Source: Candidatus Iainarchaeum sp.
GTDB lineage: Archaea > Iainarchaeota > Iainarchaeia > Iainarchaeales > JAFCCW01
Direction of reading: 5' to 3'
Assembly: GCA_017609985.1 (NCBI GenBank)
Contig: JAFCCW010000013.1
Location: 25,520 to 89,519 of the forward strand
Length of the DNA stretch: 64,000 bases
Both the position numbers and the translations under genes were made by a program. Positions 21,884 through 38,303 of this stretch are shown here, one piece after another (within the stretch, counting starts at the first letter, position 1; each line of letters starts with the position of its first letter). The notes beneath the pieces were generated by a model. It made no database searches. It was not told the DNA's origin and saw nothing but the letters and a program-made list of their open reading frames with translations.

Positions 21884-21906
21884 AAAAGATTTTTGAAAGA
21901 GAAAAA

Positions 21907-21971
21907 AAGCTATTAGCACGCCGTTACGCCCGGCGTGTGCGTAACCTATACTCCTTTCAGTTGTATAGCTT
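21907..21971 (-). ncRNA. candidate structured small RNA / 3'-trailer element, copy A
   Basis: G+C-rich 65 nt in an AT-rich context, bracketed on the minus strand by the T8 after 5S and a T7 run. Possible stems are AAGCTAT/ATAGCTT, CTATAC/GTATAG and GTTACGC/GCGTAAC or CACGCCG/CGGCGTG. It shares the 12-mer ACTGAAAGGAGT (21950-21961) with the element at 38174-38246. Confidence 0.4.
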
Positions 21972-21981
21972 TGAGTAAGAT

Positions 21982-21989
21982 AAAAAAAA
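21982..21989 (-). terminator. oligo-T (T8) terminator after 5S rRNA
   Basis: A run of 8 A on the plus strand (T8 on the 5S strand) lies immediately 3' of 5S helix I. Confidence 0.5.
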
Positions 21990-22108
21990 GCGATTAGCAG
22001 CTTCTGGTAGGCTACACGTAAAACGCACTGCCAAGCCAATCCCTACAGGGCTTAACTTCCGGGTTCGGAATGGGACCGGGTGTTTCCCCTGCGGTATGAC
22101 CGCTAATC
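21990..22108 (-). rRNA. rrf: 5S ribosomal RNA (not linked to 16S/23S in this window)
   Basis: The reverse complement reads GATTAGCGGTCATACCGCAGGGGAAACACCCGGTCCCATTCCGAACCCGGAAGTTAAGCCC...GCTGCTAATCGC. It contains the universal CCGAACCCGGAAGTTAAG block. The terminal helix GATTAGC/GCTAATC closes the molecule, giving about 119 nt. Confidence 0.9.
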
Positions 22109-22279: not shown

Positions 22280-22897
22280 TCACTTCTTCTTGCCTGTTTT
22301 TGCAGCAACTTTTTTCTTTGCAGTCTTCTTTGCTTTTGTTTTTTTCTTTTTCTTCTGCTTTGGAGCTGTCTTTTTGATTAGCTCTGCTGCCTTTTTCAGT
22401 CCCTTTCTCAATAAGTCTTCTCTCTTTGCACCTGCGCAAATCATTTTTCCGTTCTTGAACAAGAGCAGGGTAAGCTTTGGGTCTGCTATTCTCAGGATTG
22501 CTCCTGGAAACTGTTCTGGCTCATACTCTACGTTGTCTAAGCTGAGTGCTGTCTGAAATAAGTCAAGTGTCATGTTAAGGTTTGCTGTTGCAACAAGATT
22601 CACTACGTTGTAGGAAACTTTTCTCTGCACTTTAACATCGGGTTGGATGTCGTGAATCAGCTTGCTTGCTTTTCTAATTCCTTGTTCTATTTCTTTTTCA
22701 CTGCTTGCTCCGGAACAGATTACTTTTCCGTTCTTGAACAACAGCATTGAAACCTTTGGTTCCTTTAATTTCAGAATTGCTCCTGGAAACTGCTCTGGTT
22801 CATATTCGATGGTTGGAATAGTAATAGCCAGATTATACAAATCAAGAGTAGCTTTTAAGTCAGCTGACGCAACTAGATTAACAATAGTATACTTCAT
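22280..22897 (-). CDS. tbp: TATA-box binding protein with polybasic C-terminal tail
   Basis: Two TBP repeats (VNLVASADLKATLDL...EYEPEQFPGAILKL and VNLVATANLNMTLDL...EYEPEQFPGAILRI). The start is placed at MKYTIVNLV, preceded by GGGGGT; the track start is 22939. The tail is KKTAPKQKKKKKTKAKKTAKKKVAAKTGKKK. Confidence 0.9.
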   Translation of the reverse strand: MKYTIVNLVASADLKATLDLYNLAITIPTIEYEPEQFPGAILKLKEPKVSMLLFKNGKVICSGASSEKEIEQGIRKASKLIHDIQPDVKVQRKVSYNVVNLVATANLNMTLDLFQTALSLDNVEYEPEQFPGAILRIADPKLTLLLFKNGKMICAGAKREDLLRKGLKKAAELIKKTAPKQKKKKKTKAKKTAKKKVAAKTGKKK

Positions 22898-23037
22898 AAC
22901 ATACCCCCTGTTTAAAAAGTGCTTTATAAATGATTTCACTTAAAAAGGTTTAAAAAGGGGCTGGTATTATAAGAGTTTTTAGCGATTTAAGCAATAATTC
23001 TGTGAGTCACATTAATTAACTTTTCTTTGCATTATTT

Positions 23038-37988: not shown

Positions 37989-38165
37989 ATGATGCTGGAC
38001 ATTGGAAAATTTCTTTCTGACTCAAAGCGAGTACTCCTTATTGCTCGAAAACCAGGTTGGGATGAATTCAAGACAATGGCAAAAATAACAGGATTGGGAA
38101 TAATTGTCATTGGAGCAATTGGATTCTTTGTGCTTCTTTTCTTCACGCTGATTGGCTTGAAGTAG
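37989..38165 (+). CDS. secE: protein translocase subunit SecE / Sec61-gamma
   Basis: Below the track cutoff. 58 aa: MMLDIGKFLSDSKRVLLIARKPGWDEFKTMAKITGLGIIVIGAIGFFVLLFFTLIGLK, with a single C-terminal TM. It sits in the conserved position before spt5-L11. Confidence 0.75.
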   Translation: MMLDIGKFLSDSKRVLLIARKPGWDEFKTMAKITGLGIIVIGAIGFFVLLFFTLIGLK

Positions 38166-38173
38166 TTTTTTTT

Positions 38174-38246
38174 CAGGAACAGCCCATGCGACTGAAAGGA
38201 GTGTGGGCTACTTGCCAGCCGAAAGCCACGGCTTAGGATAGTTTTT
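38174..38246 (+). ncRNA. candidate structured small RNA / 3'-trailer element, copy B
   Basis: G+C-rich segment between the T8 after secE and a T6 run. Stems are AGCCCA/TGGGCT (38181-86 / 38204-09) and AGCCG/CGGCT (38216-20 / 38229-33). The loop carries ACTGAAAGGAGT (38191-38202), identical to copy A. Confidence 0.4.
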
Positions 38247-38303
38247 TAATGCTTTATGAAGTCAATTAGTTTACTAATTTCTCCTTTTTGGGGCTGAATT
38301 AAA

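Follow-up and report, generated by a model that had tools for sequence, protein, structure and literature searches.

The element described here adjoins a solitary 5S rRNA gene within a 64,000-nt stretch of DNA, hereafter the window, which belongs to contig C23 of a 1.16-Mb archaeal genome (38.8% G+C, 37 contigs, 87% complete). The 5S rRNA gene occupies 21992-22107 on the minus strand (Rfam RF00001, 78.4 bits, E 6e-15) and is the only RNA gene of the window recognized by Rfam at gathering score. It carries its own CTTTTTAAAC box ~27 nt upstream, and a TBP gene identified by Pfam lies directly upstream on the same strand (22280-22939). Read directly on the minus strand, the 5S gene is followed by GC, a T8 run, ATCTTACTCAA, the element itself (copy A) and a T7 run. 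The true 5S 3' end and its oligo-T terminator (TGCTAATCGC plus T7, 21983-21999) form the upstream member of a 17-nt direct repeat (family D2, 94% identity, spacing 81), while the downstream member (TGCTAATAGC plus T7, 21902-21918), apparently a duplicated 5S end and terminator in decay, matches it at 16 of 17 positions and begins within the final 2 nt of hairpin 2. Between the two lie a short 5' lead-in read from the sequence (T-ATCTTACTCA, 21972-21982) and the folded portion of the insert, which comprises hairpin 1 (21943-21971), the linker ACGC (21939-21942) and hairpin 2 (21917-21937), all on the minus strand. Hairpin 1 has a CUAUAC/GUAUAG core extendable to a stem of 9 positions (AAGCUAUAC/GUAUAGGUU) with one G-G mismatch, and its loop, AACUGAAAGGA, forms a 2-bp CU/GG tip with GAAA. 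Hairpin 2 consists of the stem CACGCC/GGCGUG and the 9-nt loop GGGCGUAAC, of which bases 21926-21929 are predicted to pair with the linker, the 5' strand of a pseudoknot (C21941-G21927, G21940-C21928, C21939-G21929, plus A21942-U21926). RNA folding returned hairpin 1 and a 7-bp GC hairpin with z = -2.1, and an additional 8-nt pairing of AAAGCTAT with ATAGCTTT in copy A is 100% complementary. An earlier sequence-only reading of this segment had quoted the minus-strand sequence of 21902-21975, the T7 run and both hairpins exactly, as direct reading and folding confirmed, and its description of a G+C-rich island also holds (51% for the element versus 38.8% for the genome).

The same reading had noted that the 12-mer ACTGAAAGGAGT occurs exactly at both 21950-21961 (minus strand) and 38191-38202 (plus strand), which is correct, and a third occurrence behind a thermosome gene completes the genome total of three. 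It is now evident that the two members it had envisaged are part of a larger family, since the genome encodes four copies, located behind the 5S gene (A), in the secE-spt5 spacer (B), behind the thermosome gene (C) and against tRNA-Cys (D). Copy B spans 38181-38233 on the plus strand (fold z = -3.1), next to a secE gene identified by Pfam PF00584, and consists of hairpin 1 (38181-38209), the linker ACUUGCC (38210-38216) and hairpin 2 with the loop GAAAGCCAC (38217-38233). Copy C is found on contig C27, 25 nt past the stop codon of the thermosome gene, which was likewise identified by Pfam. A covariance model built from these three close copies (R1) recovered them at E-values from 1e-15 to 1e-17 and found no other match in the whole genome, with copy A scoring 82 bits and copy B 78 bits (E 6e-15). 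A broader model (R2), in which copies A and B score 69 and 50 bits, added the diverged copy D outside of the window (contig C29:12813-12880, minus strand), which constitutes the 5' leader of tRNA-Cys, as its hairpin 2 runs into the tRNA and shares the first two tRNA positions (+1 and +2). With a TATA-like box (CTTAAAATA) located ~100 nt upstream, tRNA-Cys would be transcribed with a structured leader of ~80 nt. Elsewhere in the genome, ARAGORN predicts long tRNA introns of 123, 105, 66 and 51 nt on contigs C13, C35, C24 and C37, respectively. Neither R1 nor R2 matched any of these four introns, which may contain other repeat families.

The resemblance among the copies far exceeds chance, as had been estimated from the 12-mer. 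Both copies in the window reside in terminator-like settings with T-runs, as might be expected of ordinary terminator hairpins without a common origin, but this explanation, like chance resemblance in general, is refuted by the covariance model E-values of the three close copies (reported as 1e-15 and below), by the hundreds of homologues exhibiting covariation, and by the fact that the exact 12-mer and an identical 9-nt loop are common to different pairs of copies. Hairpin 1 is nearly identical in copies B and C, and the hairpin 2 loop GGGCGUAAC is identical in copies A and C, where it sits upon different, compensated stems.

The conserved fold becomes more apparent when the family is examined as a whole. 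In an alignment of 50 matches, representing 44 distinct sequences, the constant parts are a 5' CA, a linker of the form N-CGY-A-CC, and hairpin 2, which has a 4-6-bp GC stem and the loop G-RCG-UGA-C. Hairpin 1 varies in both length and loop and is nearly missing in a few copies, and it often contains GA/A internal-loop bases and a GAAA-type tip. The RCG of the hairpin 2 loop is predicted to pair with the CGY of the linker as a compact H-type pseudoknot. Among the 44 distinct sequences, 88% of the paired cells are occupied by pairs versus 69% in shuffles, double changes affecting both sides are present in 17 of the 21 pairs of the alignment, and none of 500 shuffles matched any of the pairing measures; in slid controls, the paired fraction fell to 30-51%. 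These hairpin figures depend upon an alignment fitted to the model, whereas the pseudoknot lies outside of the model. All seven outer stem pairs of hairpin 1 covary across the family, and alignment pair 81-117 of hairpin 2 occurs as AU in 22 sequences, CG in 15, UA in 4 and GC in 1, with none unpaired. The earlier proposal of a structured, RNA-like element with compensatory stem changes is therefore well supported, and the comparison with relatives that it called for has added a pseudoknot it had overlooked.

Covariation lends support to this predicted linker-loop pseudoknot as well. The pair 76-87 is C:G in 18 sequences and U:A in 16, while the remaining 8 sequences belong to a sub-type having a shifted pairing (UUUCG:CGAAA). 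The pseudoknot columns are each other's best mutual-information partners at 0.92 bit, followed by 0.60 and 0.25 for the next best. Since the C:G and U:A variants both occur within single genomes, this covariation is not simply a marker of sub-families. Copies A, C and D all have the pairing CGC:GCG, which in copy A can be extended to UUACGC:GCGUAA. Despite its odd hairpin 2 loop, copy B preserves the pseudoknot as CUU:AAG (C38211-G38225, U38212-A38224 and U38213-A38223 by alignment columns) and is the sole sequence with U:A at the middle pair.

None of the known RNA classes that we considered accounts for this fold, in agreement with the earlier reading. The Rfam scan it had recommended for both window copies yielded no credible match in Rfam 15 at E <= 10, nor did copy C at E <= 1. 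ARAGORN detected no tRNA in the window that might indicate a tRNA-like cloverleaf with a T-loop, copies A, B and D contain no RUGAUGA of a C/D box sRNA and have no such Rfam match at E <= 10, and H/ACA boxes are likewise lacking. Several further candidates were rejected on structural grounds. Hairpin 1 starts with AGC and ends with GAAA in a manner reminiscent of group II intron domain V, but relatives vary this hairpin freely or lack it, and nothing corresponds to domain VI. The ACGR and CCGGACG motifs recall guanidine-II/III riboswitches, but the order of the elements differs and Rfam provides no match. The GA/A bases of the hairpin 1 loop are not in the 3-nt-bulge arrangement of a K-turn or K-loop, and a 5S processing stem would require an upstream partner, whereas no complementary copy exists upstream of the 5S gene.

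All three of copies A, B and C lie between imperfect direct repeats. For copy B, the upstream repeat (GGCTTGAAGTAGTTTTTT, 38154-38171, plus strand; repeat search D1, 18 nt) consists of the last codons of secE, the stop codon and a T-run, and the downstream repeat (GGCTTAGGATAGTTTTTT, 38230-38247, plus strand), which matches at 14 of 18 positions, shares part of its length with the 3' strand of hairpin 2. At copy C, the two repeats are GCCGGGAATGATGTA, extending from the last thermosome codons into the stop codon, and GCCAGGAATGATGTA, with 14 of 15 positions in common. When 5000 flank pairs of equal spacing were sampled from the genome, the chance of obtaining such a repeat was 0.002 for copy A, 0.007 for copy C and 0.05 for copy B. 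In copy A, the upstream repeat keeps the 5S end ..CTAATC of most relatives and the change (AATA) is found in the downstream repeat; similarly, the reading frame and stop codon at copies B and C remain intact in the upstream repeat. An intact upstream repeat and an altered downstream repeat are what one would expect if, after an insertion, the redundant copy had begun to decay. Among the copies of relatives, tRNA 3' ends are duplicated likewise in two cases (at least 30/30 and 14/15), and a flanking repeat is absent, at least within 160 nt, from the other 39 of 41 examined.

These flanking duplications also clarify several features that had previously been ascribed to the RNA itself. The closing stem AAGCTAT/ATAGCTT is real in copy A, but the family does not share it, as it is missing from the other copies and its 3' arm belongs to duplicated 5S sequence. 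Likewise, the ..ATAG end and terminal T-run common to both window copies had been viewed as parts of the RNA, yet they are duplicated target flanking the insertion. The echo of the 5S 3' end was correctly perceived, as it corresponds to the 17-nt repeat with 16 matches, but it represents a target duplication rather than a portion of the RNA. The duplications measure 15, 17, 18 and more than 30 nt and start 0-2 nt past hairpin 2, while the lead-in that separates the upstream repeat from hairpin 1 varies from ~7 nt (B) and ~11 nt (A) to ~22 nt (C). The lead-in of copy C starts with UGCGAG, as does a longer upstream module of the copies of relatives. Past its T-run, copy A retains weaker similarity (10/15; family D1, 77%), and from this sequence alone, its duplication may originally have been longer, in which case the lead-in would derive partly from a longer, decayed duplication.

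The same evidence bears upon whether each copy could be an independent small-RNA gene with its own promoter, which would amount to a new class of trans-acting sRNA expressed from each copy. Such a gene would agree with the compact, stable 55-65-nt fold and with the oligo-T run found past it in copies A and B, and the T8-AT upstream of copy A is readable, by its letters, as a TATA-like box. However, with only ~11 nt between this T8 and hairpin 1, the distance falls short of the ~25 nt that usually separates an archaeal TATA box from the transcription start. Furthermore, copy C comes directly after a stop codon and has nothing T-rich or TATA-like upstream of it, copy D continues without a gap into a tRNA, the T-runs derive from duplicated target rather than from the element, and there is no conserved single-stranded 'seed', as the conserved bases are engaged in the fold. 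We consider this explanation very improbable.

Comparisons with relatives provide the empty sites. Behind the 5S gene, 27 of 29 relatives have the end ..GCUGCUAAUC followed at once by a T-rich terminator and thereafter by unrelated sequence, and two relatives instead have family copies upstream of the 5S promoter; the implied tie between the element and 5S rRNA is consequently not upheld. In the 25 other relatives inspected, the spacer between secE and spt5 is short and rich in A+T and does not contain the element, and the R2 matches in two of these (G011 and G015) lie further upstream, outside of the spacer. A search for closer relatives suitable for an empty-site comparison gave none by exact-protein look-up, and a metagenome scan with the neighboring protein gave one distant match of 34% identity.

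Based upon these features, copy A is probably a ~64-nt insertion of a small, non-coding structured repeat belonging to a family of the Iainarchaeota (DPANN), as opposed to a dedicated 5S-linked RNA gene. We infer that the element is, or was, mobile. Presumably, it landed just past the oligo-T terminator of the solitary 5S gene and, upon insertion, would have duplicated a target of ~17 nt composed of the last 10 nt of the 5S region and the T-run. Copy A would thereby have come to be preceded by the true 5S end and followed by a pseudo-end, now in decay, with a T7 of its own. At most, it would be transcribed by read-through from 5S, as a trailer ending at the duplicated T7, and the conservation of its fold would be explained most simply by recognition by the mobilizing machinery on a single-stranded RNA or DNA intermediate.

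The covariance models that the earlier reading had called for found further copies not only in this genome but also among its relatives. With R1, 19 of the 61 related genomes gave matches; these 19 all belong to the same order but to other families, and some have as many as 32, 16, 13, 10 and 9 copies. Of 215 Iainarchaeota genomes, 38 had R2 matches at E <= 1e-3, ranging from a single copy to more than 20 per genome, and the other 177 had none at this threshold; the search filters undercount. We also scanned for the exact core CGYACCNGCCGGRCGTGACGGC in one genome for each of ~185,000 prokaryotic species, in which multi-copy matches were limited to Iainarchaeum or archaeal MAGs, while single matches occurred in very G+C-rich bacteria in numbers expected by chance. 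Judging from these sequence matches, the family comprises hundreds of copies across the Iainarchaeota, to which it appears restricted and in which its distribution is patchy, and it is convincingly found nowhere else. Full-length copies are present in MAGs publicly titled 'Chloroflexi/Chloroflexota bacterium' and 'Thaumarchaeota archaeon' (L134, L144, L156, L163, L169, L173 and L186). The contigs concerned are the same as those listed in this archaeal order, with identical coordinates, and their public names therefore look wrong. As for viral carriage, the single match to a viral contig was partial, lay in a G+C-rich contig, and is probably due to chance. We found no description of this element family in the literature.

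Among the copies of relatives, hairpin 2 is often situated within a few nt of the 5' end of a same-strand tRNA or the 3' end of an opposite-strand tRNA, and it is also often a few nt from a start codon, an opposite-strand stop codon or a TATA box. Copies occur inside tRNA introns as well, in both orientations. These observations raise the alternative that the element is an RNA signal selected by the host, which stable RNAs and some mRNAs would carry either as a mark for 3'-end protection or processing or as a leader or trailer read by RNase P, RNase Z or an exonuclease-blocking protein; it would have been spread by duplication and kept for its function. This would account equally well for the strong covariation, which extends to the pseudoknot kept in many families, and it agrees with the 13 cases in relatives where hairpin 2 abuts, within a few nt, tRNA +1 or tRNA 3' ends. 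Furthermore, G-U pairs exceed A-C mismatches on the modelled strand (32 versus 15), a mild and model-biased hint at strand-specific folding. In this genome, all four copies are co-oriented with the adjoining gene and local transcription, although with n = 4, for which the chance is 1 in 16, this number is too small to weigh. Among 47 distinct copies overall, the neighboring genes are oriented randomly (22 same and 24 opposite upstream; 22 and 23 downstream), a distribution that speaks against an RNA function exerted generally from the sense strand. Copies located at tRNA 3' ends, as well as those in several introns, are even antisense, so that transcription would yield the complement of the conserved loops rather than the loops themselves. 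Also contrary to a host signal are the large majority of phylum genomes without an R2 match, the lack of positional conservation at 5S or secE-spt5, and the T8 terminator that precedes the element at copies A and B. As an account of the family, a host-selected signal is accordingly improbable, though for some copies a host function in RNA-end protection or processing is possible.

Returning to the insertion of a mobile repeat, several of its features offer clues regarding mechanism. The 3' junction exactly at hairpin 2, the variable 5' lead-in and the long, variable duplications fit copying from a 3' end better than cut-and-paste. By analogy, the insertion features resemble retroposition more than cut-and-paste transposition, though no reverse transcriptase was found: PF00078 (RVT_1) has no match in this genome (87% complete) or in G015, which is 97% complete on two contigs and contains more than 20 copies. 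The HUH transposase Y1_Tnp (PF01797) is likewise absent from both. Genomes that do encode PF00078 or PF01797 are not the copy-rich ones, and the presence of PF01797 does not track copy number. By inspection, no terminal inverted repeats join the ends of insert A, and the only two inverted repeats found (I1 and I2) are an internal hairpin and a fortuitous pairing with the duplicated flank.

The element can be compared with several known systems, none of which it fully matches. Like bacterial REP/BIME (REPIN) sequences, it is short, G+C-rich, hairpin-forming and multi-copy, resides between genes at gene ends and inside operons, maintains its stems by compensatory changes, and is often modular and arranged in arrays, as in G015. 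However, REPs are bacterial, simple palindromes with a conserved GTAG foot, no pseudoknot, no target duplication and a RAYT gene partner, whereas the Iainarchaeota element is archaeal and has a conserved pseudoknot, target duplications of 15 to more than 30 nt and no Y1 transposase. With SINEs and TPRT retroposons, it shares a small, structured, non-coding nature, a precise 3' junction with a variable 5' extent, an association with tRNA genes, and target-site duplications that are long and variable in length, but it has no A-rich or simple-repeat tail, no tRNA-derived head and no detected host reverse transcriptase. To our knowledge, SINE-type retroposition has not been described in archaea. 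MITEs, pneumococcal BOX and Neisseria Correia-type elements are similarly non-autonomous, small, intergenic, multi-copy and modular, yet the element lacks the terminal inverted repeats of MITEs and its duplication much exceeds the 2-10 bp typical of those derived from IS. Finally, mobile tRNA-intron and split-tRNA leader sequences are known from the Thermoproteales. These are likewise related short sequences located in tRNA introns or beside tRNA genes of one archaeal lineage, but the Iainarchaeota element is also found behind rRNA and protein genes, in either orientation, and it has its own fold in place of a bulge-helix-bulge.

Taken further, these comparisons could suggest a new archaeal mobile element that moves via a folded single-stranded, probably RNA, intermediate. 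Recognition of its 3'-terminal pseudoknot would be followed by copying, starting at the 3' end, into DNA nicked or unwound at transcript boundaries, such as terminators and tRNA ends, giving rise to the long and variable duplications. The enzyme would be neither a canonical reverse transcriptase nor an HUH transposase, because neither is encoded in the copy-rich genomes, and some copies, e.g. those flush with tRNA +1, would perhaps have been co-opted as processing or protection signals. We offer this scenario in its entirety as speculative and rather doubtful. The genomes of bacteria and eukaryotes are shaped by REP, BOX, SINEs and other small structured repeats of a selfish or semi-domesticated nature, whereas archaeal equivalents are barely known. 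A covariation-backed pseudoknot, long duplications, an affinity for RNA gene boundaries and no recognizable transposase or reverse transcriptase together point to a mobilization route yet to be identified in the very small DPANN genomes. For annotation, a practical consequence is that G+C-rich "sRNA-like" islands beside rRNA, tRNA and ribosomal-protein genes in these MAGs may be repeat insertions, which would also explain adjoining pseudo-terminators and pseudo-3'-ends.

A number of related arrangements were also encountered among the relatives. In G010, the genome of another family, a 68-nt two-hairpin insert is located behind the 5S gene (L083, G010:C1, 1618-1730), and to either side of it stands a perfect 21-nt direct repeat (CTGCCTTACTTTTTGTAAATT), a duplication of the 5S 3' end and T-run terminator. 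By eye, this insert has a UUUCG...CCGCC-NGACGAAAC-GGCG core in common with one sub-type, but its R2 score of 3.3 bits is not significant and it is treated as a look-alike only; its appearance is that of a separate and more recent insertion into a comparable site. Behind the 5S gene of G016 (L079, G016:C1) there is a repeat of another type, a tandem repeat of ~47 nt (aaccttttaagaaaaggtttatcaaaaYgcagcttcgcaaa). On G048:C22 (L025), the core element is found at 841-907 and 1565-1631 inside two near-identical units of ~150 nt, which have unrelated flanks and extend ~22 nt past hairpin 2, suggesting that some lineages carry longer composite versions that were apparently copied recently. Finally, in the G+C-richer genome G015 (L040-L059), the element is found within arrays of several hairpin modules, such as UACUCGGC-hairpin-CUUGGUUUCG and UGCGAGC-hairpin-GCGAGC-CA, an organization that recalls the mosaic BIMEs of bacteria.
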